Shown here: positions 3,916-37,845 of the stretch, piece after piece
Layout: every line of letters starts with the position of its first letter
Position numbering within the stretch: the first letter of the stretch is position 1
IMG/VR virus record: IMGVR_UViG_3300006922_000026
Coordinates: 1-56,304 of that record
Strand: one strand, 5' to 3'
Source: a virus
Lineage: Duplodnaviria > Caudoviricetes
DNA length: 56,304 nt
The notes under the pieces: generated by a model
Told to the model about the DNA's origin: nothing
The model's input: the letters and a program-made list of their open reading frames with translations, nothing else
Database searches by the model: none
Position numbers and translations under genes: made by a program

Positions 3916-4971
3916 TTATTGGTAAGGGTCAATATCCAAATACTTACCCCATTCGGAATAGTAATGGCGCATACCTACTTCATCATGGATAGTTCCATTT
4001 TCATGTCTACCATGTAGTATGCGTCTATTCTCTGTTCCTTCACGCATTGTAGTACCTTGCCCAGCAACTCCGATTAGATCCTCGTGGAGGTTGCGACCAA
4101 ATGGTCCCCATATACTGTTATGATGTTTGATTCGTGTCAAACGTTCTTCTTTAGTATCTTTTTTTAGTCCGTATCCCCTAAACTCAATCAGTACACGGTT
4201 AGGACCTAATGGAGTTACTGAGTCACTGCGATATGCACTTCCACGTAGATTAAAATTGAATCCAGGAAACAAGTCTACCATATACCATTGGTTGGGCGGT
4301 AGGTTAGGAAAGGACAGTTCGCCTCTATCTTCGAAGCCGTCATACTCCTCATAGTTTACTGTGAAACTGCTTACGTTTACATGCCCGTTATCAAACGGTA
4401 TATTCTTACGTGCAAAGTATTCATCGTTGAATCCACTTACACGATTAAAGTAGTGCATGAAGTCATGATAAAATTCACTGTTGGTATCATGCCATAGTTT
4501 GTAGTTTGTATCTATGATTGCTTTGTGGTAATGGAACACTTCCATTTCTTCTGTGTCAATAGCATCAGCAATGCAATCAAATGCACCTGCTGTCCATTGT
4601 TCTACACTCTGCGTAGGATTAGGATCAAGTGTTACCCATACCATACCTCCGTGCTTTACTTCGCTGTGTAGTTGTGGCTCAACTGTTACAATAGGTGCTT
4701 CGAGTGTACCAGCAGGACCGTTTATACCGTAGTTACGATATGCTCTAACACCGTTGCCTGTATTATATGCAATAACATCAACGCCTGCTATCTGTGTTGT
4801 TCGGTAGTCTAATTCGTTATACATCTCTGAGATGTGACACATAGGTACCCATACTTTACTAAAGATACGTTCTTGCTCTTGTGCAAATATTTCTGGGTTG
4901 TTATATGCTGAACTGCTGATTGATTCTACGTTTGGTTGTGCTAACCAACTCTTATGATTACGTGGTGGCAT
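3916..4971 (-). CDS. Ring-hydroxylating (Rieske-family) oxygenase alpha subunit homolog lacking Rieske cluster ligands
   Basis: N-terminal Y..PEIF..EQERIF..W; catalytic domain NYKLWHDTNSEFYHDFMH, LFPGF and EDL..Q (2-His-1-carboxylate); no CxH...CxxH. Confidence 0.85.
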   Translation of the reverse strand: MPPRNHKSWLAQPNVESISSSAYNNPEIFAQEQERIFSKVWVPMCHISEMYNELDYRTTQIAGVDVIAYNTGNGVRAYRNYGINGPAGTLEAPIVTVEPQLHSEVKHGGMVWVTLDPNPTQSVEQWTAGAFDCIADAIDTEEMEVFHYHKAIIDTNYKLWHDTNSEFYHDFMHYFNRVSGFNDEYFARKNIPFDNGHVNVSSFTVNYEEYDGFEDRGELSFPNLPPNQWYMVDLFPGFNFNLRGSAYRSDSVTPLGPNRVLIEFRGYGLKKDTKEERLTRIKHHNSIWGPFGRNLHEDLIGVAGQGTTMREGTENRRILHGRHENGTIHDEVGMRHYYSEWGKYLDIDPYQ

Positions 4972-5057: not shown

Positions 5058-5134
5058 TGGCGCACCCGACAGGACTCGAACCTATTACCTTATGTTCCGC
5101 AAACATACGCTCTATCCAGATGAGCTACGGGTGC
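5058..5134 (-). tRNA. tRNA-Arg (GCG)
   Basis: GCACCCG/CGGGTGC acceptor stem, D-arm TAGCTCATCTGGATAGAGC, anticodon arm TATGT-TTGCGGA-ACATA, GTTCGAGTC T-loop, encoded CCA. Confidence 0.92.
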
Positions 5135-5638: not shown

Positions 5639-6016
5639 CTATTTAGTCTTAGTCTGGTAGTCTTTTATTGCTGATTTGATTGCATCTTCGGCAAGTACAC
5701 TGCAATGTATCTTAACTGGCGGTAAAGCAAGTTCTTCTACAATGTCCATATTCTTAACTGCTGATGCTTGATCTAATGTCATTCCTTTTACCATTTCAGT
5801 TACTAAACTTGAACTTGCTATTGCACTACCGCAACCGTAAGTTTTGAATTTAGCATCTACAATAACATTATCTTCAACCTGGATTTGTAATTTCATTACA
5901 TCACCACATGCAGGAGCACCTACCATACCTGTTCCTATGTTTTGCTGTTTTGGATTGAAAGAACCTACGTTGCGTGGATTTTCGTAATGGTCAAGTACTT
6001 TTTCGGAGTATGCCAT
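5639..6016 (-). CDS. iscU: Fe-S cluster scaffold IscU
   Basis: YSEKVLDHYENPRNVG, GAPACGD, GCGSAIAS, LPPVKIHC. Confidence 0.97.
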   Translation of the reverse strand: MAYSEKVLDHYENPRNVGSFNPKQQNIGTGMVGAPACGDVMKLQIQVEDNVIVDAKFKTYGCGSAIASSSLVTEMVKGMTLDQASAVKNMDIVEELALPPVKIHCSVLAEDAIKSAIKDYQTKTK

Positions 6017-6559: not shown

Positions 6560-7138
6560 TTAGTCGTTGAAAGTAATTTTGTCATTGCTTACGACCTTAG
6601 TTGTAAATGTAATCATATTCACAGCATGATCCAATTTATTTGGTGTAATGTGTCTTGCCAAATGTGCAGGAGTTATAATTAATCGACCTTTGTCGATAAT
6701 AAACTTCTCGCTTGGTGCTGTGTATAGACTCAGTGATTTCTCTACTGGAGTCGATATTGGATTGTTAAAAGGTGCTTCAACAATCAAATCAATACTTTCC
6801 TTCTGTGCAGTTGGAAAGTAATGACCAATAAACAGACTGTTATCAAATGATTTTGAATCAACACCTTTACCAGACTCAATATTTTCATAATATGAATCTG
6901 CTACTTCGTGATACTCAACACTATACTCGTTTGTGTATGATTTGATACAGTCGTTAATTGATTTCTTTAGTAAAGGCAATGTATCTAATACATTTTCTTC
7001 TACACTGTCTTTGTTAATTAAGTCAAAAACTTTTGGCTCTTCTGCCGGGTGATACCCTGTTAAATCAAACATACCTACACAAGTAGGAAAGATGCTAAAA
7101 AATTCACTCGGGTGTAATGTGTCTGTTTGATGATGCAT
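6560..7138 (-). CDS. Degenerate TIGR02466-like 2OG-Fe(II) oxygenase fold protein
   Basis: IFPT start, NSLFIGHYF and GRLIITPAHL..PN pattern, but the HxH iron ligands are missing. Confidence 0.55.
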   Translation of the reverse strand: MHHQTDTLHPSEFFSIFPTCVGMFDLTGYHPAEEPKVFDLINKDSVEENVLDTLPLLKKSINDCIKSYTNEYSVEYHEVADSYYENIESGKGVDSKSFDNSLFIGHYFPTAQKESIDLIVEAPFNNPISTPVEKSLSLYTAPSEKFIIDKGRLIITPAHLARHITPNKLDHAVNMITFTTKVVSNDKITFND

Positions 7139-7755
7139 TATTCTACCGCCACTGCTTCTGAACTCATTGCACTCATTTCTATGTTGTCTGATTGCATGTT
7201 TGCCTGTTGTTCTTTGACCTCTTTCAAGTAAGTCAACATTTTTTCTGGAGTAGTTTCAATGTATGGATCAGCATCTGAACCTTCATTATTGATTCCAGGC
7301 TCTTGCCACCATGCTTCAACAACACCATCGTTGACAACTGTCATGTAACGCCAACTTCTATTTCCAAAACCTCTATGGTTCTTACCAATAAGCATACCCA
7401 TGTAACGTGTAAAGTTTCCGCTACCATCTGGAATAACTTTTACATTATTAACTTTGAGTATTTCAGCCCATGCATTCATTACAAATGTGTCATTAACTGA
7501 ACAACAGTATACTTCGTCAATACCTAACGATTTGATAGTATTGTAGTTTTCTTCAAAACTTGGTAATTGTGTTGATGTACATGTTGGTGTAAACGCACCT
7601 GGTAAACTAAACAACACAACACGTCTACCTTTGAAGTAATCGTCTGTTGTCATTGTTGTCCACATACCTTCGTCAAAACTACAACCGTCGTCTAAGACTG
7701 AGTCGCCAGTTCTAACTTGGAACGTTGTATTTGGGATTTTAAATCCTTTAATCAT
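7138..7755 (-). CDS. Peroxiredoxin (Prx5/redoxin family)
   Basis: SLPGAFTPTC, SVNDTFVMNAW, RSWRY. Confidence 0.95.
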   Translation of the reverse strand: MIKGFKIPNTTFQVRTGDSVLDDGCSFDEGMWTTMTTDDYFKGRRVVLFSLPGAFTPTCTSTQLPSFEENYNTIKSLGIDEVYCCSVNDTFVMNAWAEILKVNNVKVIPDGSGNFTRYMGMLIGKNHRGFGNRSWRYMTVVNDGVVEAWWQEPGINNEGSDADPYIETTPEKMLTYLKEVKEQQANMQSDNIEMSAMSSEAVAVE

Positions 7756-7776: not shown

Positions 7777-7852
7777 TGGTGCCGATTCACAGATTCGAAC
7801 TGCGGACCTACTGATTACAAATCAGTTGCTCTACCAACTGAGCTAAACCGGC
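7777..7852 (-). tRNA. tRNA-Thr (TGT)
   Basis: GCCGGTT/AATCGGC acceptor stem, ACTGA-TTTGTAA-TCAGT anticodon arm, GTTCGAATC, CCA. Confidence 0.95.
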
Positions 7853-8387: not shown

Positions 8388-9197
8388 CTATAATAACTCG
8401 AACCAGTACTCAGCGATACGTTTGTGTGTCTTAGGCCCAGGGTGCTGATGGTCCCGAGCATGATCCGTTTCTACTATCTTTGGATCAATGTTTGCAAATA
8501 CACCTTCTGGCATAACTTGCTCGATAATATTGTTAGTTGCTCTGCTCCAACTCCATATACTTAGAGTTTTATCTATAGCAATGTCGTTAATCCAGTTTAG
8601 GTAATTGATAGTCCTATTAGTTTCTAATAGTTCGTTGTTACTTTTAAAATAATCTACGTGTTTGCTATTGTTAGGATCTAATCCTGGACCAGGTATTAAA
8701 TTTGTGTGTTGCCAAAGTGGGTGATTATACTCTGGCCAACAAAACCTTCCATGGTCTGGTAATAGCATTAGTGCAAAATCAAAATCCACAACACGTTTTG
8801 CTACAGTATAGCATTTAGCAATGTTCTCTATGCTACTGCCTACCATACCAAAGTTTAGCAATGAGTAACTCGGATACATTTTATTAAGGTGTTGTACAAA
8901 TGTATCTTGCTCATCTACACCTACACCAAATGTACAACTGTCGCCAAATATTGCTATACGTGTTTTTCTACTTATATCAAGATTCCAAGTGCCTCTAAAG
9001 CCGTACTCGTTAATGTTGTAAGTAGTGCCTATTGGATCTACTTCCCATTCCTTGCTATCTTTAAATGGTCCGCATGTAAACGACTGTTTAGGTTTGTACT
9101 CCGGACAAGTTAACATATACTCATGAAACTTCACAAGGTCGTGCTTGTTATTCATCAATGCTGGACTTAATTGTGATAGGTTGTCTATGCCGTCCAT
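8388..9197 (-). CDS. SGNH/GDSL-like hydrolase fold protein
   Basis: FGDSCTFG block I, NFGMVGSS block II, DHQHPG block V. Confidence 0.75.
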   Translation of the reverse strand: MDGIDNLSQLSPALMNNKHDLVKFHEYMLTCPEYKPKQSFTCGPFKDSKEWEVDPIGTTYNINEYGFRGTWNLDISRKTRIAIFGDSCTFGVGVDEQDTFVQHLNKMYPSYSLLNFGMVGSSIENIAKCYTVAKRVVDFDFALMLLPDHGRFCWPEYNHPLWQHTNLIPGPGLDPNNSKHVDYFKSNNELLETNRTINYLNWINDIAIDKTLSIWSWSRATNNIIEQVMPEGVFANIDPKIVETDHARDHQHPGPKTHKRIAEYWFELL

Positions 9198-10165
9198 AGT
9201 ATGCTACCAGAGTTGTTTTGTTTTACTTCTTGTACGAATTGGTCTGGACTTGGTTCGTAATACTTTTCATCATACTCTTTAGGCTTATCAACAAAGTCTG
9301 TGTGTGGGTTGCCACACAATACAAATGGACCTTTTTGAATATCTAACTTAATGCCTAATGTTTTATCCTTAGGTATATGAAATCCTAATTGACACCAATG
9401 ATTAAAGTTATCACTGCCACGTCCTGGATTGTTGTTTACAAATTCTGTATCTTCACTGTATGCCTTCCAATGGAATACCATAAAGTTGTGTCCTTCTGGT
9501 CTTGGAACTTCCATGATAAATCTTAGGTCGTCTTCTTTAGGATAGTTCTTTAGATCAAGACTAAACATAAGTGTTTCATTGTCTACAGGATGATCGTCAA
9601 TACGTGTAGGACGTAATCCTGGTAATGGATATAGCATACCCATCTTTAGGTTAACAGGAAACTGTTCAATGTAACGTTTTTCTTTTTCAACTTCTTCTAA
9701 GAACAATGTACTTTGATACAGGTTAATCTTATCTGGAATAGCAACGCAACCTTGTTGTCTTGCAATCAAGTCGCTATAGATACGTGTAAAGTTTCTTTCA
9801 ATACCAATGTCGCCAAGTGTTTCACTAATAACTAAATCAAAGTAATTTGATGGAGCCTCGTTAACATCTGCGATTATTCTATAGTTTGTAACGTTGTTTA
9901 GTTTGCATAGTTCTTCAATGGTTCCATGTAAACTTGTTTGGTTCTCACAGAACCATACTTCTTTTGCACCCTGTAATGACGCATAGATACCAAGCAATCC
10001 TGTGCCTGCTCCAAAGTCAATTACAGTTTTACCTTCTGCATGTTTTTTAATTCTACTAAAGAAACCTTGACAACGTGCATGATCTTTAATCATACACATA
10101 TGACTGGCATGATCAGCAAACTCGTGATCAAATAAAGCAAAGGTATGGTCGCAAAATTTATCCAC
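9185..10165 (-). CDS. PRMT-like SAM-dependent methyltransferase
   Basis: [28 protein letters not shown], double-E loop [17 protein letters not shown]-like NHWCQ. Confidence 0.8.
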
Positions 10166-10745
10166 GATTAGCGATTACCGTATCTGCAAGTCCGTAATCA
10201 ACTGCTTCTTGGGCACTCATAAAGTTATCTCTATCCATGTCTGCTTCAAGTGTAGCATAATCTTTGCCTGTGTGCTTTTCATACAGTTTAGTCAATGTTT
10301 CTTTCCAATACTGTAATTCTTTGTATTGAATCTCAACATCACTTGCTTGTCCTTGTGTTCCACCTAATGGTTGGTGTATCATGTGTCTTGCATGTGGTAA
10401 GATTTTACGTTTGCCTGGCTCACCTGCCATTGCAAGGAAACTTCCCATACTTGCCGCTTGACCCATTACAATAGTATTCACTGGCGAATTGATAAACTGC
10501 ATTGTGTCATAGATAGACATACCTGCGGTTACACTACCACCTGGACTATTAATATAAAAGTTAATTGGTTTCTTTGGATTTTCACTTTCCAAGAAAAGCA
10601 TTTGTGATACAATTAAACTTGCAGACGTACTGTTTACATCTGTGTCTAACATTATAATACGATCTTTTAGTAGACGACTGTAAATATCATAACTACGTTC
10701 GCCACGTTGTTCTTTCTCAATTACTACTGGTACTAAATTAGGCAT
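10158..10745 (-). CDS. clpP: ClpP protease
   Basis: [29 protein letters not shown] (Ser), MIHQP (His), DRD; start revised to ATG 10745. Confidence 0.97.
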
Positions 10746-10977
10746 ATCGCCCCTCCTTCGTTCTGTATACTTCTTTCGGGCCTGGTGTTGTAAACTCATA
10801 GCCAAATGCGTTACCAATGTATATACTTCTACCATTCCATTTCATATGGATTTTATTTGTAGCCATAAACACATTCATCGATTCTTTTTCTCTAAAGTTG
10901 TCTACTTCTGCTTCAACTACTTTATCGTTATCTGTACAAGTTACCATACAAGTCTTTTCGTAAACACTATTCGCCAT
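10738..10977 (-). CDS. Hypothetical protein
   Basis: 79 aa ORF coupled to clpP. Confidence 0.7.
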
Positions 10978-11215
10978 TGCTTATCCTTTTTTTAATTGTT
11001 ATATATTCTAACATATCCCATACTATAAAGTAAAGAAAAAATGTTGCCAAACTGCCAAACCACCCGCCAAAAAAGTACACGGGTATCAAGTAAAAGAAGA
11101 TAACAAATTTATACAAGTATCCTCTTACCATTCTCTTAGGAACGTAATGCATAGGCCATTGTCCAATATTTTCTATTGGTGGCTTCTTTCTAAAATCTTC
11201 GTATTCCCAGTTCAT
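10967..11215 (-). CDS. Small membrane protein
   Basis: Aromatic/hydrophobic double TM; overlapping start/stop. Confidence 0.65.
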   Translation of the reverse strand: MNWEYEDFRKKPPIENIGQWPMHYVPKRMVRGYLYKFVIFFYLIPVYFFGGWFGSLATFFLYFIVWDMLEYITIKKRISNGE

Positions 11216-11694
11216 AGTGTATATTCAAAATTTTGTGTTTGATGATGTATGGCTACTTGTTTAGCACCATTCTTAATATGAAAGTGTGTTGCCATAGGAT
11301 TTAACGGACTTAATGTTACTACTCTTTTTATACCGTTCTTCTTTGCGAATTCTAAAACTTTTTTAATGATCTCTTTACCTGCTCCACGTTTGCGACTCCA
11401 TACAGTGTATGCAATAGCAATATTCTTTTCGTCTTTCAAGTGTGCAAGTTCGCTCATTAGATCTAATTCTTTTACATTGTGCGGAACATCATTTGTAAAT
11501 GCAATACAAATAATTCCTTCAATTTCATTTTCATATTTTAAACCGTAAATCTTACGACCTTTACTAATACGCCAGCCAAGTGTTAGTTCGGGTCTAACAG
11601 GATCTTCACTTACATCGATATCATCGAGCTCAACAAGTTCAGTACCTTTTACCCATCTAAAAAATTCTTCGCTTTTGTCCTTGAACAACTTCAT
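11212..11694 (-). CDS. GNAT-like fold phage protein
   Basis: AYTVWSRKRGAGKEII acetyl-CoA-binding-like motif; ATHFHIKNG. Confidence 0.65.
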   Translation of the reverse strand: MKLFKDKSEEFFRWVKGTELVELDDIDVSEDPVRPELTLGWRISKGRKIYGLKYENEIEGIICIAFTNDVPHNVKELDLMSELAHLKDEKNIAIAYTVWSRKRGAGKEIIKKVLEFAKKNGIKRVVTLSPLNPMATHFHIKNGAKQVAIHHQTQNFEYTL

Positions 11695-12419
11695 ACTTTA
11701 TTCCTTTTTATAATCTTTAATACTTTTTGACGCATACGTGCATTGTCAAAGTATTCATATGCTTTATGTAAAGGTGTAGGTGGAAGTTGATTCTTTAGTG
11801 TAATACAAGAGTTAATAGGACTATGAAAGCCTAACTGATCTAACTCATGCGAGTCAAACTCAACAAGATTAATTTTTTCATCTGTGTTGAACTTAACATA
11901 CATTAAAGGATCTCCTTCATTAATGCTAATACGTGTTGCATCAGGTTTCTTTTGGAACAATGGGCGTACACCTGGACGAAACCATCTGCCAATATCATAA
12001 CTGCCACACAATGGATTAACTGATTCTGTATATCCGTTGTTGTGATAATACGGTGGTAAGTTTGTAGCCATTAATGGCTTGTCTGCAAAAAATATGTAAC
12101 CAAAGCCAAGTTGGTGAATACCGTTCTTGCCTTGTGGGTCTCCAAAGAATATTGCTCCGAACTCTGGATCTTGTCTGTGTATTTTTAGTTGACCGTTATC
12201 GTTGTATTCAAGTTCAACTGTTACAGGAGATTTGATAACAACTGTTTTAGTCATCTCTTCTACCATACCAGGACAATGCAATAATGATGGTCCAAGCCAT
12301 TCTTTGTAATCTATGTTCTTGTGTAAGAACTCCGGCTCTTGAAATCGTAGTGGACTAATGAAATGTCTTTCACCACTACCTGGAGCAATCGCTCTTGTCC
12401 AATATACATTAACGGTCAT
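11691..12419 (-). CDS. Conserved phage hypothetical protein (beta-rich)
   Basis: CP...GSYDIGRWFRP...INEGDPLMYVKF pattern common in large phages. Confidence 0.7.
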   Translation of the reverse strand: MTVNVYWTRAIAPGSGERHFISPLRFQEPEFLHKNIDYKEWLGPSLLHCPGMVEEMTKTVVIKSPVTVELEYNDNGQLKIHRQDPEFGAIFFGDPQGKNGIHQLGFGYIFFADKPLMATNLPPYYHNNGYTESVNPLCGSYDIGRWFRPGVRPLFQKKPDATRISINEGDPLMYVKFNTDEKINLVEFDSHELDQLGFHSPINSCITLKNQLPPTPLHKAYEYFDNARMRQKVLKIIKRNKV

Positions 12420-13176
12420 AATCGTTAAACCACATTTTATAAGGTTGCCCTTGTTTGCTGTCTTTTCTTACAAAGCCAAACTGACCAATGTTGAAACTTA
12501 ATGTAACTCTTTCAACATCACTCTTGAAAGGATATACTGCATGTCGCATAGCACCTGGAAAGAAAATACAATCACCTGTTGTTGGTGTATAGTTTATTCC
12601 ACTGCTCTGCCATATGTCATCAATCAAACCACCAGTGAATGTAATGTCGCCTGGTACTGGTTGATTAGTATATTCTTTTGCCTTGTCTTTTTCTTCTTTA
12701 ATTACTTCAGGTATATCAATATACAAACTTGCACTAATTAAACTGTTAGGGTGTGTATGCATTGGATTAAACTCACCTGCTTTAGTTACGTTAACCCAAG
12801 GATAACCTAATAGTTCTATTGCAAGATCATGTTCGTCCTCTGATGGCATTTCATCAAGATTGCTTACTTGTAGTCCACTGCGAATATAATTGTTACAGTG
12901 TTCTGCCATTATGGTGATAAACCTGTTTTGTTCTTCTGGAGTTCCTATACTTTTTAAGTCGTACTGTCCAGCAATGTTGCCACTTAGGCTTTGACCCATT
13001 GGATCGCTCTTAGCCTGTGCTTCTTTAGATAGTTTTTGTAAAAACGCTAAATCGTCATCTGTGAACTTTCCAATATAGAGGCTTGGTCCAAAAGGTTTAC
13101 GTATTTCGTATCCTTTAGATTCCTCAGTCCAACCGTGACCGTTATACTTAAATTGTCTATCTATTGTTTTCGGCAA
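12409..13176 (-). CDS. TIGR02466-like 2OG-Fe(II) oxygenase
   Basis: WVN...FNPMHTH...FFPG.MRHAVYP...RVTLSFN; start tentatively TTG 13176. Confidence 0.8.
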   Translation of the reverse strand: MPKTIDRQFKYNGHGWTEESKGYEIRKPFGPSLYIGKFTDDDLAFLQKLSKEAQAKSDPMGQSLSGNIAGQYDLKSIGTPEEQNRFITIMAEHCNNYIRSGLQVSNLDEMPSEDEHDLAIELLGYPWVNVTKAGEFNPMHTHPNSLISASLYIDIPEVIKEEKDKAKEYTNQPVPGDITFTGGLIDDIWQSSGINYTPTTGDCIFFPGAMRHAVYPFKSDVERVTLSFNIGQFGFVRKDSKQGQPYKMWFNDYDR

Positions 13177-13354
13177 TTCTTTGTTCCTTCTTACGTCTTG
13201 CAATACCACGCTTCTTTGCTTCACGTCTTTTTTCACTTGGCTTCATGTAGTGTTGTCTTTCTCTTAACTCTTCCATGATTCCGTTTTTCTTCATTTTACG
13301 TTTCATAAGCCTTAGGGCCTTTTCAACGTTGTTATTTCTTACGATTATTTCCAT
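13157..13354 (-). CDS. rpsU: Ribosomal protein bS21 (copy 1)
   Basis: IIVRNNNVEKALRLMKRK...ELRERQHYMKPSEKRR. Confidence 0.92.
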   Translation of the reverse strand: MEIIVRNNNVEKALRLMKRKMKKNGIMEELRERQHYMKPSEKRREAKKRGIARRKKEQRIAENNR

Positions 13355-14391: not shown

Positions 14392-14958
14392 TTATAGGAT
14401 ATGATCTGCGATATTAAGGTCAACCATTTGTTTGGCTGTGTAGTATTGGTCGGAAGGATTTTTGATAAACTTATTACGAACTTCTTGTATAGTCATACCA
14501 GTTGCATCACGTAATATTTGCATACATCTTGTTTCGCAGTTTTGGTTCTCTTTCATCTGTGCTTTGATGTCATGCATTTTGGCATCCATATTATCACTGT
14601 GTTGATGATTCATGCTACCTGCATTTTTACCAATATAACGTTGTCCTTCTTTACCACTTGCAAAGATTAAAAATCCTGCACTCATAACTGCACCAATTCC
14701 TATAGTGCTTATGTTGTGATAACTGTTCTTCATTACATCAATAAGAGCAAACATCTCATAGAGATCTCCGCCTGGGGTATTGATATACAATTGAAGTGTA
14801 CGTTTTGGTTTTTTGACTAAATTTGCACTTATGATCCATTTGATAGTTTCACTGACATTTTCACTTGTGATTTCTCCAGTGAGATAGTGAATATCGTTAT
14901 CAAGTAGATTACGATCTATAGCATCAGCGGCTGAAAAGAATTCGTTCTGTTTACTCAT
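14392..14958 (-). CDS. Divergent ClpP-family protease (second copy)
   Basis: LYINTPGG, AVMSAG (Ser), SMNHQ (His), DQYYTA..M...IADHIL. Confidence 0.88.
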   Translation of the reverse strand: MSKQNEFFSAADAIDRNLLDNDIHYLTGEITSENVSETIKWIISANLVKKPKRTLQLYINTPGGDLYEMFALIDVMKNSYHNISTIGIGAVMSAGFLIFASGKEGQRYIGKNAGSMNHQHSDNMDAKMHDIKAQMKENQNCETRCMQILRDATGMTIQEVRNKFIKNPSDQYYTAKQMVDLNIADHIL

Positions 14959-15483: not shown

Positions 15484-15512
15484 ATTATACATTATTGTAC
15501 ACCACTTGTCAA
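15484..15512 (-). promoter_or_regulatory. Sigma70-type promoter
   Basis: TTGACA-17 nt-TATAAT, perfect consensus. Confidence 0.8.
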
Positions 15513-16819: not shown

Positions 16820-18271
16820 TTATTGTTGGGTTAGAGTAGTTGTACCACAACCATTTGCGTTAACACAGGTTTGACTTATTGAGTATGTTTGATTAGTTGA
16901 ACCTTGTTGTGTAAGGTCAAGTCCTGAAGTGTAACCTGACATAGATACAGAAGTGTTATGCTGTCCACTTCCGTCTTGTGTTATGTCAACAGTTTGATCA
17001 CTGCCAACAGCAATTTCTGCATAGTGCGAACCTGCACCTTGTTGATATAAGTCTATATCATTGTCGTCACCTTGTACAGAAATAAATGCTTTTTTATCTC
17101 CGTCATTAAGTTGACTTGTCAAAACATTATTGTTGTCGCCATCTAAATCTAATGCAAGGAAGTGTCCATTAGTTCCTATACCATTATTGTGATTTTGTGT
17201 GATGCTTGTTGTATTAGTGTCGCCATTTATATCAAATTCAACTCTATTGTCGTCTGCACCTGATGTACTACCTTGATCAACAGTTGTTGTATTAGTGTTG
17301 CCTGTGATATCAAACAACATAACATTATTGTCGCCTTTTTGTTTTAGTGTAGTAGTGTTGTTACTTCCTGTAATATCTGCATTTACATAACTGTTTGTTG
17401 TAGATCCAACTCCTGCTATTAAGTTATCATCGCCGTCTTGTACAATAGTGAGTGTATTGCTGTTACCTACTTGATTAATGTATATACCATTGCCACTGTT
17501 TGTTACACCTCTTGATGTTGTTATCTGTGTAGTCTGTGCGTTGCTTATGCTTGATGTATATGTGGTTGTTGTTGCAACTAATCCTTCTTCTTGCAAGGCT
17601 CGATACAAGAAGTCATTCATGTTACTTGCATATTGATGAGTTGAAAGAAATTGTCCATAACCAAACGTTACATAAACTGTACCGCCATTTGAACCGTAAT
17701 CCCATTTATGCATCATTTCAATTGTAGATGTGGTAGTATTAGCAGTAACCATTTCACCACCAGTAATATTGTACATATATTTGTCTGTGCCTGGTAAAAT
17801 ATTTTCACTTGCTGTGCTACTGGCATAATCGCCTCTGGCTATATTTTGATAACCACCATTACTACTACCGGCTTGAGTAAAACTGCCTACACTTAACTTA
17901 CTTTCAATTAAACTTTCTATATTACTATTTCTGGTGGTCGCTCCGTTGGATCCTACTATAAGTAATTTACCGCCGCTTGATAGATAACTTTCATAATTTG
18001 TTTTACAGGTACTACCACAATTTGAAGAACCTGTGATATCAATTACAAGTTCTTTACCTGATATATCAGAACTACTAACGGTACCACTTGTACTACTTGA
18101 AACAGTAAAGCCTGCATCTTCAAGTTCGCTTTTTAAATTAAGGTATTGGCTTGAAGTATTATAACCACCACTATTTTTATAATATATGAAAGCATCATTT
18201 GCAAATGCTTGTATAGGCAATACTAATAATAAAAATAATACACTACTGAACTTGTACAATGTCGATTTCAT
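16820..18271 (-). CDS. Secreted curlin-repeat protein with N-terminal globular domain
   Basis: Signal peptide (..QAFA), many QxGxxN/IxGxxN repeats in C-terminal half; start revised to ATG 18271. Confidence 0.8.
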   Translation of the reverse strand: MKSTLYKFSSVLFLLLVLPIQAFANDAFIYYKNSGGYNTSSQYLNLKSELEDAGFTVSSSTSGTVSSSDISGKELVIDITGSSNCGSTCKTNYESYLSSGGKLLIVGSNGATTRNSNIESLIESKLSVGSFTQAGSSNGGYQNIARGDYASSTASENILPGTDKYMYNITGGEMVTANTTTSTIEMMHKWDYGSNGGTVYVTFGYGQFLSTHQYASNMNDFLYRALQEEGLVATTTTYTSSISNAQTTQITTSRGVTNSGNGIYINQVGNSNTLTIVQDGDDNLIAGVGSTTNSYVNADITGSNNTTTLKQKGDNNVMLFDITGNTNTTTVDQGSTSGADDNRVEFDINGDTNTTSITQNHNNGIGTNGHFLALDLDGDNNNVLTSQLNDGDKKAFISVQGDDNDIDLYQQGAGSHYAEIAVGSDQTVDITQDGSGQHNTSVSMSGYTSGLDLTQQGSTNQTYSISQTCVNANGCGTTTLTQQ

Positions 18272-19349
18272 TTTGTCCATCTCCAAGTTGGTAGTCTCTG
18301 TATTCAAAGTCTTGTTGTCGCATATTAATATTATAACCATACTGTTGATCTAAACGTAATTCATAAAAGTTTCCTAAACCATCATCACGTCTTAATACCC
18401 AGTCTGGGTTTTGATCATACAGTTCTATTCCTGTTTCAGGATCTTTACCTAACTGTATACCTTTTTGTCTTGAGTCTAATGCTCCACGCATAAGTCTTGC
18501 TAATGCTTGGTTAATTTGATCTAAGATATTAGCAAGAAAGTTATTACCTAAGAAGTCTACGTCCAGGTCGGTCATCCAAAGACCCTTTTCACTTTCTGCA
18601 AAGTAGTTTGTATTAAGTTCATCAAAGTCTAAAAAGTCGACGCCTAAGAAGTCGCCTAACTTTCTAACTCTTTCATATTCTTGTTGTTCATTATCATACA
18701 CAGGCTTGCGTATGATTAGCAAGTTGTTAATGATTAAGTTTGTTGGATCTAACAAAAGGGGTTTCAGTGGAGCACTCGCACGAGTGTTAACCGAAGTAAC
18801 TTGGAAGGCCTGATTGAGTATTACTATACCCACATCGGACTCCACTGAAATTTCACCTACTACACATATCCCATTAGTCGTACAACTGGGTAGTAGGATT
18901 ACCATAGTATTACCTGTTTCGTCTACAGTCATGGTAAAATCTGTTCCTCTAACACCAATTACTGCTGTTGGTGTTTTTATCTTGACATTCTGTCTTGAAT
19001 TCTTTGCGATTTGTCCAGACGCATAACGTACAGTACCAAGTGATGCCTTCAAACTCAGTGCTCCTGTCTTTGTGTTTGGATCATAAACAAAATCGTCTAT
19101 TATTAATTTACTGTGGGGAGTAACGTCGACTCTGGTCTCGTCAACAAATTCAATCGCGGTTGCTCCTTGCTGTGTTAGTACTGTGTCCATACTAAACACA
19201 TCGGTGTCCTTTTCACTCTTTACTACATCACCCTCTTGCCTTTCAATTACTGCGTTACCTTCTTGTTTGATAACGTCACCAATTGAGTTGGCAAGAGCCG
19301 ATGAAACAGTCAAGACGAGGAATGATATTAAAACACCTAACTTCAACAT
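18243..19349 (-). CDS. FecR-domain periplasmic protein
   Basis: Signal peptide; D.V.T.....I.F.D.T, KTPTAVIGVRGTDF FecR signature. Confidence 0.9.
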   Translation of the reverse strand: MLKLGVLISFLVLTVSSALANSIGDVIKQEGNAVIERQEGDVVKSEKDTDVFSMDTVLTQQGATAIEFVDETRVDVTPHSKLIIDDFVYDPNTKTGALSLKASLGTVRYASGQIAKNSRQNVKIKTPTAVIGVRGTDFTMTVDETGNTMVILLPSCTTNGICVVGEISVESDVGIVILNQAFQVTSVNTRASAPLKPLLLDPTNLIINNLLIIRKPVYDNEQQEYERVRKLGDFLGVDFLDFDELNTNYFAESEKGLWMTDLDVDFLGNNFLANILDQINQALARLMRGALDSRQKGIQLGKDPETGIELYDQNPDWVLRRDDGLGNFYELRLDQQYGYNINMRQQDFEYRDYQLGDGQNEIDIVQVQ

Positions 19350-19352
19350 ACG

Positions 19353-20057
19353 TTAATCGCTCTGCGTAATGTTGATGGCCGCGTTGTCACCACTTGTTGT
19401 CAAATTGATGATGTTGTCATATACACCTGATTGTGATATAACTGTTAATCCTGCATCACCAGTATGGCTGTGTGTTAACGTATGACCGTTAGTATCTCCG
19501 TCACCAGTTTGTGTGTAGGTTGCTACGTTACCTGCACTACCTGAACTGTTTGAAACGTCGATATCTGCTATTGCACTTTTACCGTTTGCTGTTAGTGTAA
19601 TTGTTTCGTCTGCCGCACTTGTTACATCTATTGTACCAGTGAAACTTTCTGCATCTGCGCCTTCACCAATATTTACATTAATGTCTGCACTTGATCCAGT
19701 TACGTCAATACTCATACTTACAGTGTCACAGTTTCCTGCTCCTGAACTATCACAGAGTAATGCTACATCATTACTGTTACCAGTAAGATCAATATTACCT
19801 GTGTAAGTTACACCTTTAACTACTGCTGATACTACGTTAGCACCACCAATTTGGTCAATGTTAAAAGTCATTGTGTTACCAGTTAGTGTGATTGCTGTAC
19901 TTGATGTACCTGCAACGTTATTGTTCCCGTCTTGTGTTATGTCCAAATCTAAGTTATTACCACTTTGCGTAATATAAATGTCATTCGCTATCGCTGGTGT
20001 TAAGAAAAGTAACATACTTATAAACAGGATACTTCTTAATGAAAATGCTTTGTTCAT
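19353..20057 (-). CDS. Curlin-like subunit (CsgA/CsgB-like)
   Basis: Signal peptide; IYITQSGNN, ITQDGNNN, IDQIGGAN, ISQSG..N repeats. Confidence 0.8.
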   Translation of the reverse strand: MNKAFSLRSILFISMLLFLTPAIANDIYITQSGNNLDLDITQDGNNNVAGTSSTAITLTGNTMTFNIDQIGGANVVSAVVKGVTYTGNIDLTGNSNDVALLCDSSGAGNCDTVSMSIDVTGSSADINVNIGEGADAESFTGTIDVTSAADETITLTANGKSAIADIDVSNSSGSAGNVATYTQTGDGDTNGHTLTHSHTGDAGLTVISQSGVYDNIINLTTSGDNAAINITQSD

Positions 20058-21109
20058 CTTCTTTCTCCTATATTATTTGTTCCTTCTTCGTTTACTTCCT
20101 TCTTCTCTGTGCGAAGTCTTTCGTACTTAAATTGTGCTACAGCAACATCTGATGGTATACACAGATTGTTATCTGAACAATATAAAGTCTTACCCGGCCA
20201 CTTTTTATACGCCTCGACGTCTGGCAATGGGCGGAGGTGTGGGATAGAAATGTCAACTTCTACATCGTCGGTCTGATGTACAACCTTCGGTGATTCAACC
20301 ACCGCCGGCTTCTCGACTATTTTCTTCTTAAACTTCCAAAGACCATTCGCTTCTCCTCTGGTCACTAACTCTACTATTGCCGCCTCGATGGCCGCACGAA
20401 CTGCATAGTTAGTTGGTTCATTAACAGCAGAACCGGCTTCTATTTCAAGCGCCTTTGTTCCCATGTCAAGAAACCTAAATACGTCTGCTCCAGACGCATA
20501 AGATGCAATCGTTTTTTCAGTTGCTACGCTTAATAATACTTCACCAGTTTGTACACTCACGATACGCATTGCTACTGTTACTTTGTCTGTTCGATACTGT
20601 GTGTTTGCGCCAATACCAAAGTATCTTGCGCCAGCACCGCCACTTGTAATGTTACTGTCATATCCAATAACACCACCTTCTAAAAGTAACCCTGCAAATT
20701 TCATAGGCTTTAATTTGTTACTGCCCTCTTTGCCTTCATACAACTCCCTTGTTGATCTAATTAACTGCCTTTCTTTTACTAAATTTTCTAATCCTACTCT
20801 TTCTAAAACAGTGAACCAAGTTCCGTTACCTACTTCTTGTAATCCACTTATCACCCAAACCTCAGCACCTTGTGTAACTGCTGAACTTAACTGTGAGAAA
20901 TTCTCACTTGGTTTACGCTGTCCTGTTTTATCAGTAAATCCATATATTGCTATGGTGATCTTTTCACCATCTAACTCTGGAGTTCTTTTTAATACGTTTT
21001 CAATAGGACTTCTAACTACTTTAGGATTTTCAATCATAGAATCAGGCATGGTTGTCGCACACCCTGTCATGAGAACCATCGCTAATAGTATTGTTATTAT
21101 CCTAAACAT
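20054..21109 (-). CDS. csgG: Curli secretion channel CsgG lipoprotein
   Basis: Lipobox LMTGC; FTDKTGQRKP, SSAVTQG, WFTVLERVGLENLVKERQLIR, EGGVIGYD. Confidence 0.95.
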   Translation of the reverse strand: MFRIITILLAMVLMTGCATTMPDSMIENPKVVRSPIENVLKRTPELDGEKITIAIYGFTDKTGQRKPSENFSQLSSAVTQGAEVWVISGLQEVGNGTWFTVLERVGLENLVKERQLIRSTRELYEGKEGSNKLKPMKFAGLLLEGGVIGYDSNITSGGAGARYFGIGANTQYRTDKVTVAMRIVSVQTGEVLLSVATEKTIASYASGADVFRFLDMGTKALEIEAGSAVNEPTNYAVRAAIEAAIVELVTRGEANGLWKFKKKIVEKPAVVESPKVVHQTDDVEVDISIPHLRPLPDVEAYKKWPGKTLYCSDNNLCIPSDVAVAQFKYERLRTEKKEVNEEGTNNIGERR

Positions 21110-21113
21110 TTTC

Positions 21114-21584
21114 TTAAAATCCGAATCCGCTTAATGGAACAACTATTTCTGTGGTAGTACCGTCTTCATTTGTAATTGTTACAGTAATAGTATCCGAGGT
21201 AGTATCTTTAACCCAGTAAACTGTAGCACCTTCAATGGTTGCTGTTCCTGAGTTGGCACCGTCATCAGTAAACATATTATCTACCAACTGCTTACTTAAC
21301 TGTGCGTAAATTCTTGATTCGACGTTATTAAGAAACTTCGCAAGAGTTGTGGACTCTGCTTCACGTTTGGCTTTAGCCGCATCGGCCGCCGCTTTTTCTT
21401 CTGCTTCTTTTTTACGTTGGAATTGTAATTGCTCTATAGAAAGCACGTGGTTGGAATAACCTTGCCCTGAAAACGAAGGATTTTTAAATTCAAATGTAAG
21501 GTCACTTGCCACCGCGGGCGGTGACGTTGTTATGTGAAGCAATCCCAGTAATAGAATCACTCCTGTTCGAGTCAGTTTTAGCAT
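21114..21584 (-). CDS. csgF: Curli assembly protein CsgF
   Basis: Signal peptide then LTFEFKNPSFSG; adjacent to csgG. Confidence 0.9.
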   Translation of the reverse strand: MLKLTRTGVILLLGLLHITTSPPAVASDLTFEFKNPSFSGQGYSNHVLSIEQLQFQRKKEAEEKAAADAAKAKREAESTTLAKFLNNVESRIYAQLSKQLVDNMFTDDGANSGTATIEGATVYWVKDTTSDTITVTITNEDGTTTEIVVPLSGFGF

Positions 21585-21723
21585 TAATTGCCCTCCACAT
21601 GTATTTACCGTAGATCGAATCAGATTTCACCAGGTACAAAAATCTGACGGTCACATTAATTTGTTACGTTTAAATGTTGGTTTTTTGACGGTCTGGTGAT
21701 TTAATCAGTACATAAATATGTGT

Positions 21724-23772
21724 ATGAAATACATAACTCACTGGGCAACTGCCTTACTCACTTTAGCATTTCTTACATTCTACGGATATTCAGATCCATA
21801 CGTTAAACAAATATTAAGATTAAAAAGTTTTGATGTTGTTCAACGTTCCGATACTCCTGTGATTAGCGAAGATATTGCTATACTTGAGATAGATGAGAAA
21901 GCGATTGAGCAGTATGGACAATGGCCTTGGAAACGTTCAGTACTTGCAGATGTTATATGGAAGTTGCGTGAGTCAGGTGCAGGAGTAATTGTACTACCTA
22001 TATTGTTTTCAGAGGAAGATAGACTTGGTGGTGACATGGAACTTGCTCAAGCAATAGCCGGGAACGCTGTTGTAATTGCACAAGTAGGAACAACTCAAGC
22101 AAACAAGAACGCAGTACCAAGAGGTGTTGCCAAGATAGGTGATCCTATGCCTTGGTTATTTGAATGGCCAGGTATGTTAGGACCAATAGAGTTATTAGGA
22201 ATGAACGCTGATGGTGTTGGTGTTGTAAACACTGTACCAGAGATAGATGGTGTTGTACGTAGAATGCCACTTATAATGCGTGTAGGTGATGAAACATATC
22301 CTGCAATGGCAATAGAAACAATACGTGTTGCTACAGGCGATCCAAGTTATCAAGTTAAAACAGAACAAGGCGGCATAACAAAAATGCGTGTTCCTGCATA
22401 TGCAACTATACAGACAGATGCTAACGGACGCATATGGTTACGTTGGAACAAACAATTTCCAACATATAGTTTAGTAGAAGATGATTACACACAACTTGCA
22501 GGCAAGACTGTTATTATAAGTCCTACAGCAGAAGGACTCAACAGTATCATTGCTACACCTAACGGAGAACGTTATTCACACTTGCTAACTGCAACAGCAT
22601 TGCAAACAATTATCAATGGCGATACTATTGTTAGAATGGACTATGCTACGTTTGTAGAGTGGGCAGGAACTGCTTTACTTGGTCTTATAATCATCTTAAT
22701 GGCTCTTAAAACACCGTATTGGCTTGTAGGCACTGTTATAGTTGCTGTACCAATAAGTGCTGTGTATGGAGCATATTTTGCTTTTACAAGGCATTTACAA
22801 CTATGGGATTGGAGTTGGCCGGTGATTGTAGTTGTAATCGTCGGATTACATGCAGTGTTTAATAGGTTCGCAAAAGAGTTCTTTGAGAAACAAGCAATTA
22901 AAAAACAGTTCGCAGGATACGCATCTCCAACAGTTGTGCGTATGCTACAAGAGAATCCAGCACTAATCAAAGACGGTATGAAGAAAGAAGTTAGCATACT
23001 GTTTTCAGACTTACGAGGCTTTACACCATTAGGTGAATCATTTGGTGATGATGTAAAAGGCCTAACAAAAATTATGAATGGCTACATGGACGCAATTACG
23101 CAACCTGTACTTGATGCTGATGGTATGATTATTAAGTACATCGGCGATGCAAGTATGCACATACATAATGCACCGATAGAAGATCCTGAACACCCTAAGA
23201 CAGCAGTTCGTACAGGATTGAATATGTTAACAGCAGTGGAGAAATTTAATGATAAAATCACAGCAGAAGGACGGCCGCCAATTGGCATGGGAGCAGGCAT
23301 CAATACAGGACTTGGCTATCTTGGAGAAATGGGTAGCACCGCAAGACATTCGTACGATGTACTCGGAGACGCAGTCAGTACAGCCGCAAGAATCGAAAGC
23401 AAATGTAAAGAATACGGATGCCTACTATTAGTAGGTGATGCTACGTATAAGCAAACCAAAGACGATTTCTTTTACTTAAAAGTAGATGAACTACAAGTAA
23501 AAGGCAAGAGTGTTGGTATTATTATATGGACTGTGCTTGATGGTATGAATACTAATTCAGATCGCAAGAGTCAGAAAATGCACCAAGAAATGCACGAAGC
23601 ATACAGAGCCCAGAAGTTTGATGAAGCAATATGGATCTGTGAAAAACTAATGAGACACTTTGATGGCAAAATGGAAGGCTATTATAAGATGTGGATTGAA
23701 CGTTGTGAGTTCCAGAAAACACAAGACTTACCTAAAGACTGGAACGGTATAATGATTGCTACTTCGAAGTAG
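21724..23772 (+). CDS. CHASE2-domain class III adenylate cyclase
   Basis: IDEKAI..GQWPWKR and DGVVRR (CHASE2), three TMs, FSDLRGFT, KYIGDA, GINTG, YDVLGDAVSTAARIES; start probably ATG 21724 after ATAAATA. Confidence 0.95.
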   Translation: MKYITHWATALLTLAFLTFYGYSDPYVKQILRLKSFDVVQRSDTPVISEDIAILEIDEKAIEQYGQWPWKRSVLADVIWKLRESGAGVIVLPILFSEEDRLGGDMELAQAIAGNAVVIAQVGTTQANKNAVPRGVAKIGDPMPWLFEWPGMLGPIELLGMNADGVGVVNTVPEIDGVVRRMPLIMRVGDETYPAMAIETIRVATGDPSYQVKTEQGGITKMRVPAYATIQTDANGRIWLRWNKQFPTYSLVEDDYTQLAGKTVIISPTAEGLNSIIATPNGERYSHLLTATALQTIINGDTIVRMDYATFVEWAGTALLGLIIILMALKTPYWLVGTVIVAVPISAVYGAYFAFTRHLQLWDWSWPVIVVVIVGLHAVFNRFAKEFFEKQAIKKQFAGYASPTVVRMLQENPALIKDGMKKEVSILFSDLRGFTPLGESFGDDVKGLTKIMNGYMDAITQPVLDADGMIIKYIGDASMHIHNAPIEDPEHPKTAVRTGLNMLTAVEKFNDKITAEGRPPIGMGAGINTGLGYLGEMGSTARHSYDVLGDAVSTAARIESKCKEYGCLLLVGDATYKQTKDDFFYLKVDELQVKGKSVGIIIWTVLDGMNTNSDRKSQKMHQEMHEAYRAQKFDEAIWICEKLMRHFDGKMEGYYKMWIERCEFQKTQDLPKDWNGIMIATSK

Positions 23773-29909: not shown

Positions 29910-31022
29910 TTATGCGTTGTATTGATTGAACACTTGATTAACCTGTTGTGTACATCTTACGAATGTTGTACACTTAGGCATATCTTTAATGCGTTTTGCT
30001 CCAATGTAAGTACAAGTAGATCGTAAACCACCAAGTATTTCTGTTAGTGTACCTTCTACTTCTCCTTTGTAAGGAATAGAAACAAGTTTGCCTTCAGCAC
30101 CCCTGTATCCATCTTTACGTGTACCATGTGTCGCCATGGCCGCGTCTGAGCTCATTCCGTAGAACTCAACAAAACTCTGTTCAGCAAAGTGCGGAACATA
30201 AGTTCCATTGTCTAACTTATGAGCACCTCCTGTTGATGTGTGTTTTGTAATAATGTTACCACCACCTTCTTTGTGTCCTGCTAACATACCGCCAAGCATA
30301 ACAAAGTGAGCACCTGCTCCAAAGGCTTTACTTACATCTCCTGGATACACACAACCGCCATCAGCAATAATGTGTCCACCAATACCATTGGCCGCATCAG
30401 CACATTCAATAATGCCTGATAGTTGCGGTACACCAACACCTGTCATTAGTCGTGTAGTACATACTGATCCTGGACCAATACCACACTTGACAATGTCAGC
30501 ACCTTTGATAATAAGTTCTTCTGTCATCTCTGCTGAAATAACATTACCAGCAATAATAGTTTTGTCTGGGTATGCGTCTCTAACTCTTGCAATAAAGTCT
30601 GCATAGTTTTCGTGATAAGCATTTGCAACATCAATAGTAATAAACTTGATGTCTGGATACATTTCTAATACTGCTTTCATAGTAGCATAGTCTTTTGCAT
30701 CTTTATCCCAAATAACTCCTGTACCTGTGCAAACACTTAGGTACTTCATCTTTACACCTGCACTGTGTTCTTTCCAGTCATCTACTGAATAGTGCTTTCG
30801 CATTACAGTAATCATTTTATGTTCTTGCAGGACCTTCGCCATCTCGAATGTACCAACACCGTCCATGTTACTTGACATGATCGGTACTCCAGTCCATTCA
30901 TTACCATAATGAAACTTGATCGTTCGAGTCAAGTCAACGTCACGCCTGCTTTCTAATTTAGACCGTTTAGGCTTAAACAGTACGTCTTTGTAATCTAACT
31001 TAACATCTTGTTCGATTCTCAT
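29910..31022 (-). CDS. guaC: GMP reductase
   Basis: KLDYKDVL, NMDGVGTF, IDVANAY, GIGPGSVCTTR, FYGMSS, LRSTCTYIGA. Confidence 0.95.
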   Translation of the reverse strand: MRIEQDVKLDYKDVLFKPKRSKLESRRDVDLTRTIKFHYGNEWTGVPIMSSNMDGVGTFEMAKVLQEHKMITVMRKHYSVDDWKEHSAGVKMKYLSVCTGTGVIWDKDAKDYATMKAVLEMYPDIKFITIDVANAYHENYADFIARVRDAYPDKTIIAGNVISAEMTEELIIKGADIVKCGIGPGSVCTTRLMTGVGVPQLSGIIECADAANGIGGHIIADGGCVYPGDVSKAFGAGAHFVMLGGMLAGHKEGGGNIITKHTSTGGAHKLDNGTYVPHFAEQSFVEFYGMSSDAAMATHGTRKDGYRGAEGKLVSIPYKGEVEGTLTEILGGLRSTCTYIGAKRIKDMPKCTTFVRCTQQVNQVFNQYNA

Positions 31023-37771: not shown

Positions 37772-37845
37772 TGGCAGGAGACCAAGGAATTGAACCCTGT
37801 CTTACTGGGTTGGAGCCAGTCGTGCTACCGTAACACTTGTCTCCT
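37772..37845 (-). tRNA. tRNA-Trp (CCA)
   Basis: AGGAGAC/GTCTCCT acceptor stem, ACTGG-CTCCAAC-CCAGT anticodon arm, GTTCAATTC, CCA. Confidence 0.92.

Follow-up and report, generated by a model that had tools for sequence, protein, structure and literature searches.

The window analysed here is a 56,304-nucleotide (nt) stretch of viral DNA (IMG/VR record IMGVR_UViG_3300006922_000026, positions 1 to 56,304) that encodes, on its minus strand, a protein with the architecture of a protein arginine methyltransferase (PRMT). Membership of this product in the PRMT superfamily is close to certain. Together with its relatives, all from uncultured marine phage contigs, it forms a small, phage-only branch of the superfamily, and this branch, with its shortened double-E loop and private C-terminal tail, is what is new here. 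We give a probability of about 0.6 to a model in which the protein is a dimeric, S-adenosylmethionine (SAM)-dependent arginine N-methyltransferase that acts on host or phage proteins during infection.

9185..10165, minus strand: gene for the PRMT-like SAM-dependent methyltransferase, 326 amino acids (aa), GTG start

Sequence comparisons place the protein among PRMTs. When it was compared singly with PDB sequences, the 48 best rows were all PRMTs (best E 1.8e-8), and weak matches to histidine and lysine methyltransferases appeared low in the list (E 3e-4 to 1e-2). A word-index search of 5.8 billion proteins returned 14 homologues with 33–97% identity, none of which has a meaningful name. The query and 13 of these homologues make up the 14-sequence family alignment, whose profile found PRMTs in all of its best 60 rows against PDB sequences, with alignments extending to residues 262–284; the top matches are T. 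brucei PRMT7 (E 8e-16, residues 21–262) and yeast Hmt1 (E 4e-15, residues 18–284). Searched against 1.84 billion representatives, the profile matched 6608 proteins at E ≤1e-3, 608 at ≤1e-10 and 7 at ≤1e-30, numbers that mark this family as a small one, on the margin of a large superfamily. Among 57 aligned proteins of the next tier, Pfam recognises PRMT_C in 40, PRMT5 in 31 and PrmA in 56, and their consensus contains HxxMLxDxxR, SExIGxxxxxE and THWxQ. A comparison of the family with these 57 proteins by hhalign gave a probability of 100% (E 2.4e-48) over 251 columns, with NHWcQ on tHWxQ. The resemblance to PRMTs, supported by these profile and hhalign values and by a structural Z of 21, is not due to chance.

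A reading made earlier from the letters alone (the sequence-only reading) had listed a set of PRMT hallmarks in this product without assigning a strand. All of them are present, in order, and are encoded on the minus strand.

10073..10102, minus strand: N-terminal helix H22-x2-M25-x2-D28-x2-R31, of the PRMT SAM-capping type, aligned by HMMER on HEEMLKDEVR of PRMT8
9998..10024, minus strand: motif I, V48-I-D-F-G-A-G-T-G56, the SAM-binding glycine loop, invariant in the 14-sequence family
9797..9826, minus strand: double-E-like loop, S114-E115-T-L-G-D-I-G-I-E123, with glutamates 8 apart
9386..9406, minus strand: THW-like loop, F254-N-H-W-C-Q-L260, aligned by HMMER on Y-T-H-W-K-Q of yeast Hmt1
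9188..9310, minus strand: family-specific C-terminal tail, residues ~286–326, GNPHxDF...PSPDQFVQ...WT, conserved in 13 of 14 members

In addition, the acidic residue after strand β2 is E74, and P144 follows the Rossmann core. Motif I, E74, S114, E115, G118, D119, I122, E123 and P144 are invariant in the family, as are F254, N255, H256, W257, Q259 and L260 of the THW-like loop, in which the family's N-H-W-x-Q falls exactly on T-H-W-K-Q of Hmt1, so that the THW-like loop of the sequence-only reading is supported. Motif I, E74, E115, E123 and N255-H256-W257/Q259 are kept down to a 34%-identical member, from which H22 is missing. H22, M25, D28 and R31, whose SAM-binding roles we take from structures of PRMT1, are not counted as family-invariant, since three rows are divergent or lack part of the N-terminus. 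In a 19-sequence alignment that combines the family with a second phage clade (see below) and canonical-looking PRMTs, M25, D28, R31, V48, D50, G52, G54, G56, E74, E115, G118 and P144 are invariant. The C-terminal tail is absent from the basal member P0015 and has no counterpart in the canonical sequences of the 19-sequence alignment.

The double-E loop calls for one correction: both predicted glutamates are there and E123 is invariant, but the loop is one residue shorter than the canonical one. E115 aligns on the first catalytic Glu. The spacing of the glutamates is 8, as opposed to 9 in the aligned PRMT chains, and HMMER and hhalign accordingly align E123 with the column that precedes the second Glu of canonical PRMTs. 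Positions +8 and +9 are both Glu in P0015 and in many proteins of the next tier, an indication that the pocket is the same but displaced by one residue.

The predicted fold agrees with the sequence comparisons. An AlphaFold model built from the family alignment (predicted local distance difference test, pLDDT, 79.6; predicted template modelling score, pTM, 0.79) consists of a Rossmann core followed by a β-rich half; pLDDT falls below 50 at residues 308–326 of the C-terminal tail. All rows listed by Foldseek for this model against the PDB were PRMTs (best E 2.6e-14, TM-scores 0.53–0.63). VIA-align, which works independently of Foldseek and was run against 48,161 representative chains, placed PRMTs at ranks 1–15 (Z 21.3–15.6, root-mean-square deviation 3.2–5.2, 256–275 residues), with alignments that span model residues ~9–325, mostly 15–291. 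Rank 16 is PrmA (Z 13.5, 131 residues), and the non-PRMT rows, which comprise PrmA and RNA and small-molecule methyltransferases, reach Z ≤13.5 over ~112–156 residues. The sequence-only reading had called for a comparison of this kind and had named the lack of a PRMT barrel as grounds against itself; because 15 PRMT chains align on the model well beyond its Rossmann domain, that objection falls away. As modelled, the protein is a Rossmann domain joined to a C-terminal β-barrel.

The barrel carries an insertion that may serve in dimerisation.

9608..9697, minus strand: helix and loop, residues ~157–186, after the first barrel strand; candidate dimerisation arm in the model

The helix of the arm comprises residues 157–168, and pLDDT is low at 180–183. 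A modelled homodimer reached an ipSAE of 0.68, against 0.00 for the best control; of proteins solved as pairs, 20 of 30 attain the mark of this test, and of those solved as single chains, 1 of 23. Three runs share at least 48% of their contacts, with a partner pLDDT of at least 79. Residues 162–186 of one copy contact residues 19–36, 55–64 and 82–90 of the other, and the arm packs on the Rossmann helices of its partner. Packing of the arm on the partner is the arrangement of PRMT dimers, and the test may have been passed through memory of solved PRMT dimers. The model is consistent with a PRMT-like homodimer.

The family is small. Ten viral contigs (L001–L010) encode related proteins, and the ESM Atlas cluster of the protein, used here as a lead only, has 117 members; of the 37 whose phylum is known, 86% are viral. 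A tblastn search of 50,697 annotated phage records, from which records very similar to the window may be missing, gave no match to the PRMT-like protein (E limit 1e-5). The genomes of 185,579 prokaryote species hold no close relative; the best long matches, from Acidobacteriota and myxobacterial metagenome-assembled genomes, are 22–27% identical. In a quick maximum-likelihood tree of 69 sequences, which omits fragments and multidomain proteins (P0017, P0019, P0020, P0047, P0056, P0063, P0069, P0070 and P0072), the family is one clade on a long branch with a Shimodaira–Hasegawa-like approximate likelihood ratio (SH-aLRT) support of 99. The second phage group is another clade (SH-aLRT 98), and neither is nested among the sequences with THWKQ and Glu at +9. 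The description of the gene as eukaryote-style was therefore overstated, since the family is a clade of its own in uncultured marine phages; the term fits the architecture, not the ancestry. Full-text searches of open-access articles, as judged from listings and the openings of abstracts, found no description of a phage- or virus-encoded PRMT.

The second phage-borne PRMT-like clade consists of proteins of ~300 aa with an SExIGDxxxE loop and HS[YF][YF]Q instead of THW (proteins P0021, P0022, P0024, P0025, P0031, P0034, P0035 and P0077; viral loci L099–L121). It resembles the family in its +8 double-E loop, in the G-D after the first Glu and in its origin from uncultured T4-like marine phages, but it is only 18–24% identical to the PRMT-like protein, forms a separate clade and has replaced the Trp of THW. 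A scan of viral contigs with an alignment of this clade gave 341 pattern matches, of which 102 proved to be relatives and 80 were retained; among these, 21 loci (L099–L119) match 273–307 of 307 residues, on contigs of up to 221 kb. In the 50,697 annotated phage records, tblastn found nothing for one member (limit 1e-3) and one weak partial match for another. The surroundings of nine loci were examined, and 29 neighbouring open reading frames (ORFs) from seven of them were scanned against Pfam. The neighbours, which are genes of T4 type, vary by locus and include the gp23 capsid protein; UvsX with a gp41-type helicase and ThyX; SufE; and a radical SAM protein with PhoH. The gene adjoins clpP in none of these nine loci. 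At four of them (L101, L111, L112 and L114) an ORF of ~326 aa without a Pfam family (5887–6864 in L101, for example) overlaps the end of the PRMT-like gene, and it may be a conserved partner.

Several features indicate that 9185..10165 is an intact gene. The GTG start is sound, since homologues open with M or V at the equivalent position and have the N-terminal sequence in common with it. Comparison with L001, the sole pair that is not saturated (synonymous divergence, dS, 0.34), gave a ratio of nonsynonymous to synonymous substitution (dN/dS) of 0.07; more distant syntenic pairs gave 0.10–0.21, comparable to clpP (0.08–0.17). The PRMT-like gene is under purifying selection. Marine metagenome runs from several studies contain the stretch almost complete. 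Two metatranscriptome runs from one study each contain a contig of ~94% identity that covers clpP, the PRMT-like gene and the next gene, and an RNA-library run from a second study contains a 439-nt contig (3 differences) that reaches across the clpP/PRMT junction; these are assembled contigs, in which transcript ends and levels cannot be read and DNA carry-over is possible.

The gene lies in a tightly packed neighbourhood on the minus strand, between clpP and a hydrolase gene.

10158..10835, minus strand: clpP, cellular-type Clp protease proteolytic subunit (PF00574, E 1.3e-80)
8388..9197, minus strand: SGNH/GDSL-fold hydrolase gene, with invariant FGDSCTFG and D249..H252
10738–10977 and 10967–11215, minus strand: two small ORFs of 79 and 82 aa, matching no family
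11691–12419, minus strand: conserved ORF of 242 aa, matching phrog_17480 (function not assigned) only
12409–13236 and 13157–13354, minus strand: 2-oxoglutarate (2OG)-Fe(II) oxygenase ORF and phage bS21; the listed GTG of the oxygenase overlaps bS21 by 80 nt
14392–14958, minus strand: second, divergent ClpP paralogue of 188 aa, 25% identical to the product of clpP at 10158–10835, with Ser/His/Asp kept
15484..15512, minus strand: perfect sigma-70-type consensus TTGACA-17-TATAAT (12/12 match), upstream of the PRMT-like block

The overlap with the clpP stop noted in the sequence-only reading amounts to 8 nt (GTG at 10163–10165, clpP stop at 10158–10160), and the PRMT-like stop overlaps the ATG of the hydrolase gene by 13 nt. 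ClpP of the window is 56–65% identical to ClpP proteins annotated in large phages, and its Ser-His-Asp columns are present; translation probably begins at the internal Met of MPNLVPV, judging from the point at which the matches of relatives set in. The hydrolase falls below the Pfam GDSL threshold and has no PDB sequence match. In a comparison of its AlphaFold model (pLDDT 63.4) all 50 VIA-align rows are SGNH-type (best Z 12.0 over 157 residues), and CgnD, which belongs to the biosynthesis of a ribosomally synthesised and post-translationally modified peptide (RiPP), is among the tied best matches (Z 11.8), level with ordinary esterases.

The order clpP, PRMT-like gene, SGNH hydrolase is kept in seven of the ten viral loci (L001–L007, 49–95% identity), where the syntenic block also includes the second ClpP paralogue, bS21, the 2OG-Fe(II) oxygenase, the highly conserved ORF and a GNAT protein. 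In the window, the genes from 13236 to 8388 are co-directional with overlapping junctions and encode the oxygenase, which probably starts further in because its listed GTG lies inside bS21, the GNAT protein, the 79- and 82-aa ORFs, the protease and the hydrolase. The most conserved gene of the block is the 242-aa ORF, with 81–95% aa identity where the PRMT-like genes have 49–80%; it has no Pfam family, PDB sequence match or match in annotated phages. Loci retrieved through this conserved neighbour are the same seven contigs, and all of them carry the PRMT-like gene, so that they offer no contrast between core and accessory genes. The second ClpP paralogue occurs in four of the seven syntenic loci (L001, L002, L006 and L007) and was not found in the available parts of L003–L005; the phage may build a mixed ClpP ring.

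The coupling to clpP proposed in the sequence-only reading holds in those seven loci and is absent from three divergent members and from the second phage clade, so the link is lineage-specific. In the divergent members (L008–L010, 38–40% identity) none of the clpP-block neighbours lies beside the PRMT-like gene. Neither ClpP nor S21 was found in the available DNA of these three loci, an absence that proves little because the records are 11–44% complete. In L010 (2096–8832) a DUF2201 metallopeptidase/VWA protein and an AAA ATPase precede the PRMT-like gene and a GroEL-type chaperonin follows it; these are again protein-quality-control genes. L009 has no chaperonin at the equivalent spot.

Upstream of the block, the site at 15484..15512 is one of two perfect TTGACA-N16-18-TATAAT sequences in the 56 kb (the other is at ~32549); both lie on the coding (minus) strand, and the other strand has none. 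L001 and L003 have perfect hexamers at the corresponding position, separated by a different spacer; L002, L006 and L007 have none there. The totals of the promoter scan are not above chance (26 observed, 30.1 expected). We found no convincing minus-strand terminator between the 15484..15512 site and the PRMT-like gene. On this sequence evidence, the block is probably co-transcribed from a host-type promoter, perhaps early.

Together, these observations support a model of protein arginine methylation during infection. The protein would be a compact and catalytically competent enzyme whose Rossmann domain binds SAM, and a head-to-tail homodimer would form through the β-barrel arm. E115, E123 and the NHW loop would hold an arginine between them, and the methyl group would pass to a nitrogen of its guanidino group. 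The enzyme would be made with phage ClpP and the SGNH hydrolase from the packed co-directional block, probably under a host-type promoter, and its target would be one or more host or phage proteins modified in infection. That the acceptor is arginine and the substrate a protein, we infer by analogy, from the conserved Glu pair, the HW loop and the activity of solved relatives.

The phage substrates named in the sequence-only reading gained no support. Two of them are tandem paralogues that had been described as RG-rich.

49329–49658 and 49655–49984, minus strand: two tandem 109-aa paralogues that share a KYRCT-G-RKGRIV motif and have no Pfam family

Both paralogues are extremely basic, rich in Arg and Lys rather than in RG: the first has 22 Arg and 14 Lys, with one RGG and five RG/GR dipeptides, and in a ranking of ORFs by RG density the second falls outside the top 14. 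They may bind nucleic acid or be internal proteins of the virion. The third proposed substrate, bS21, has one RG only.

A number of observations weigh against methylation of protein arginines. An RG/RGG scan of the ORFs of the window revealed no classical glycine-arginine-rich protein and supported no substrate candidate. Pfam PRMT_C does not match the PRMT-like protein at E up to 0.1, and PrmA is the only Pfam match above its cut-off. The second Glu is at +8 instead of the canonical +9, so the arginine clamp is not canonical. The neighbours of the gene vary among phage lineages, and the context therefore holds no consistent clue to the target. Published relatives and analogues also reach beyond proteins: PMC3417536 describes bacterial PRMT relatives as 'peptide methylases' in secondary-metabolite operons, alongside peptide dioxygenases, and PMC11705231 describes SznE, a methyltransferase that acts on the guanidino group of free arginine and that is not called PRMT-like in the passage concerned.

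These two precedents are the starting point for the main alternative, less likely but a serious rival, in which the guanidino group that receives the methyl belongs to a small peptide or to free arginine, and in which the enzyme would belong, as a tailoring enzyme, to a phage-borne peptide or metabolite cassette made up of the 2OG oxygenase, the ORF at 11691–12419, GNAT, the two small ORFs, ClpP, the methyltransferase and the SGNH hydrolase. The co-directional block with its oxygenase, GNAT, small ORFs, protease and hydrolase has the look of such a cassette, and the hydrolase has the RiPP protein CgnD among its best structural matches. However, Pfam and PHROG scans of the block, in which the two small ORFs were not tested as precursors, recognised no precursor peptide, RiPP recognition element, nonribosomal peptide synthetase or cyclase. 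The family also occurs without these neighbours in L008–L010, and the second clade sits beside capsid, replication or ThyX genes. In addition, marine phages often carry a 2OG oxygenase among their auxiliary genes, and tight packing of genes is usual in T4-like genomes. A separate, improbable alternative keeps the PRMT fold and changes the acceptor to lysine, an N-terminal amine, glutamine, histidine or a non-protein nucleophile, the shortened loop having altered the pocket. The +8 spacing is common to the second phage clade, where HS[YF][YF]Q replaces THW, and the weak PDB matches to histidine and lysine methyltransferases point the same way. Against an altered acceptor stand both glutamates and the H-W-x-Q of the THW loop, invariant in the family, the presence of Glu at +8 and +9 together in P0015 and in many next-tier proteins, some of which keep THW, and the fact that every full-length structural match is an arginine methyltransferase.

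Two further alternatives question the activity or the identity of the protein. It could be PRMT-like but without catalysis and serve a structural or regulatory purpose, such as that of a ClpP partner, in the manner of the trypanosome PRMT 'prozyme': inactive PRMT paralogues exist, the enzyme–prozyme complex 6dnz is among the matched structures (Z 18.4), and the gene is coupled to clpP. The invariance of SAM-binding and catalytic motif residues across the family and the low dN/dS make this very improbable. Automatic annotation instead suggests a PrmA-type ribosomal protein L11 methyltransferase. Pfam sees only a generic Rossmann domain in the protein, its best match is PF06325 PrmA (26 bits, cut-off 22), and PrmA is the precomputed label of most homologues and of the Atlas clusters. 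In PHROGs the protein has one weak match, 'tRNA methyltransferase' (E 4.3e-4). But the Pfam match is confined to the Rossmann core (residues 43–120), and the label does not discriminate, as the 56 of 57 canonical-tier PRMT-like proteins that also match PF06325 demonstrate. The NCBIfam prmA/PRK00517 models score 14.2–27.5 bits (21.7–27.5 for the prmA models) against cut-offs of 183–327 and cover residues 40–120 only, and the PrmA structures 3grz and 1ufk align over 130–131 residues (Z 13.2–13.5). We therefore reject PrmA, an identity that now has next to no probability, and the distinction from PrmA-type enzymes drawn in the sequence-only reading is borne out. Under the preferred reading of protein arginine methylation, a broader and decidedly speculative idea is that the radiation of arginine methyltransferases in marine T4-like phages serves host takeover, and that methyl-arginine in the present phage, with its two ClpP paralogues, would mark proteins for Clp or shield them from it. 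Phospho-arginine is a degradation tag used with ClpCP in Firmicutes, and a methyl-arginine mark would be its counterpart.

The rest of the window bears on its source. The record is rated ~20% complete and encodes bS21, IscU, peroxiredoxin, CsgG, ribonucleotide reductase, DNA ligase and three tRNAs.

3916–4971, minus strand: ring-hydroxylating oxygenase alpha-subunit-like protein
5639–6016, minus strand: IscU/NifU
7138–7755, minus strand: peroxiredoxin
29910–31022, minus strand: IMPDH/GMP-reductase-family protein
5058–5134, 7777–7852 and 37772–37845: tRNA-Arg(GCG), tRNA-Thr(UGU) and tRNA-Trp(CCA), respectively

A curli-type cluster at 16820–23772 comprises a Curlin repeat protein, a FecR-domain protein and CsgG; within it, a CHASE2-adenylate/guanylate cyclase gene (21718–23772) lies on the opposite strand, and GC skew flattens locally there. 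The ribonucleotide reductase is ~70% identical to that of Synechococcus myoviruses (cyanomyoviruses), and the gene content (bS21, curli CsgG) resembles that of the pelagimyophages of PMC7029224, in the main text of which Clp, methyltransferase and arginine do not occur. Because the conserved neighbour of the PRMT-like gene is unmatched in annotated phages, we call the source only a marine T4-like myovirus.

Comparison with known systems defines what is shared and what is peculiar to the phage enzyme. The bacterial 'peptide methylase' homologues of Aravind and colleagues (cited in PMC3417536), compared here by description, likewise belong to the PRMT superfamily of the prokaryote world and show that the substrates of this fold extend beyond eukaryotic proteins; in contrast to their operons, no biosynthetic core genes were found near the phage gene in Pfam and PHROG scans. 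If the phage target is a peptide or free arginine, phages would carry tailoring chemistry known from bacterial natural-product clusters. PrmA shares the class I Rossmann methyltransferase core, the source of the family's automatic label, but has no match to the β-barrel. In phage T4, the arginine ADP-ribosyltransferases Alt, ModA and ModB modify host transcription and translation proteins early in infection. Their likeness to the PRMT-like protein is by analogy of purpose only, as fold and chemistry are unrelated; if host or phage proteins are methylated, this would be a new post-translational takeover chemistry in phage biology.

The closest architectural parallels are the cores of eukaryotic PRMTs (PRMT1/Hmt1, PRMT3, PRMT6, PRMT8, CARM1 and T. 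brucei PRMT7). They have the same Rossmann domain and β-barrel with an inserted arm, the same H..M..D..R helix, motif I, post-I Glu, first Glu, Pro hinge and HWxQ in register, and they align with Z 19.7–21.3 over 260–273 residues; the modelled head-to-tail dimer is a further likeness. The phage protein differs in its sequence (14–21% identity), in the +8 position of the second Glu, in N for T in the THW loop, in its short arm and ~40-residue private C-terminal tail, and in having no accessory domains and no Pfam PRMT_C match. Moreover, it is phage-encoded and belongs to a clade of its own that is not nested among THWKQ sequences in the quick tree. Methylation of arginine by PRMTs is regarded as a regulatory system of eukaryotes, yet intact enzymes with the PRMT fold are maintained by purifying selection in uncultured marine T4-like phages (7 clusters at E <1e-30, and at least 21 further contigs). 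If they are active as proposed, these proteins would provide small single-domain PRMTs for mechanistic work, with a natural variant of the double-E loop.

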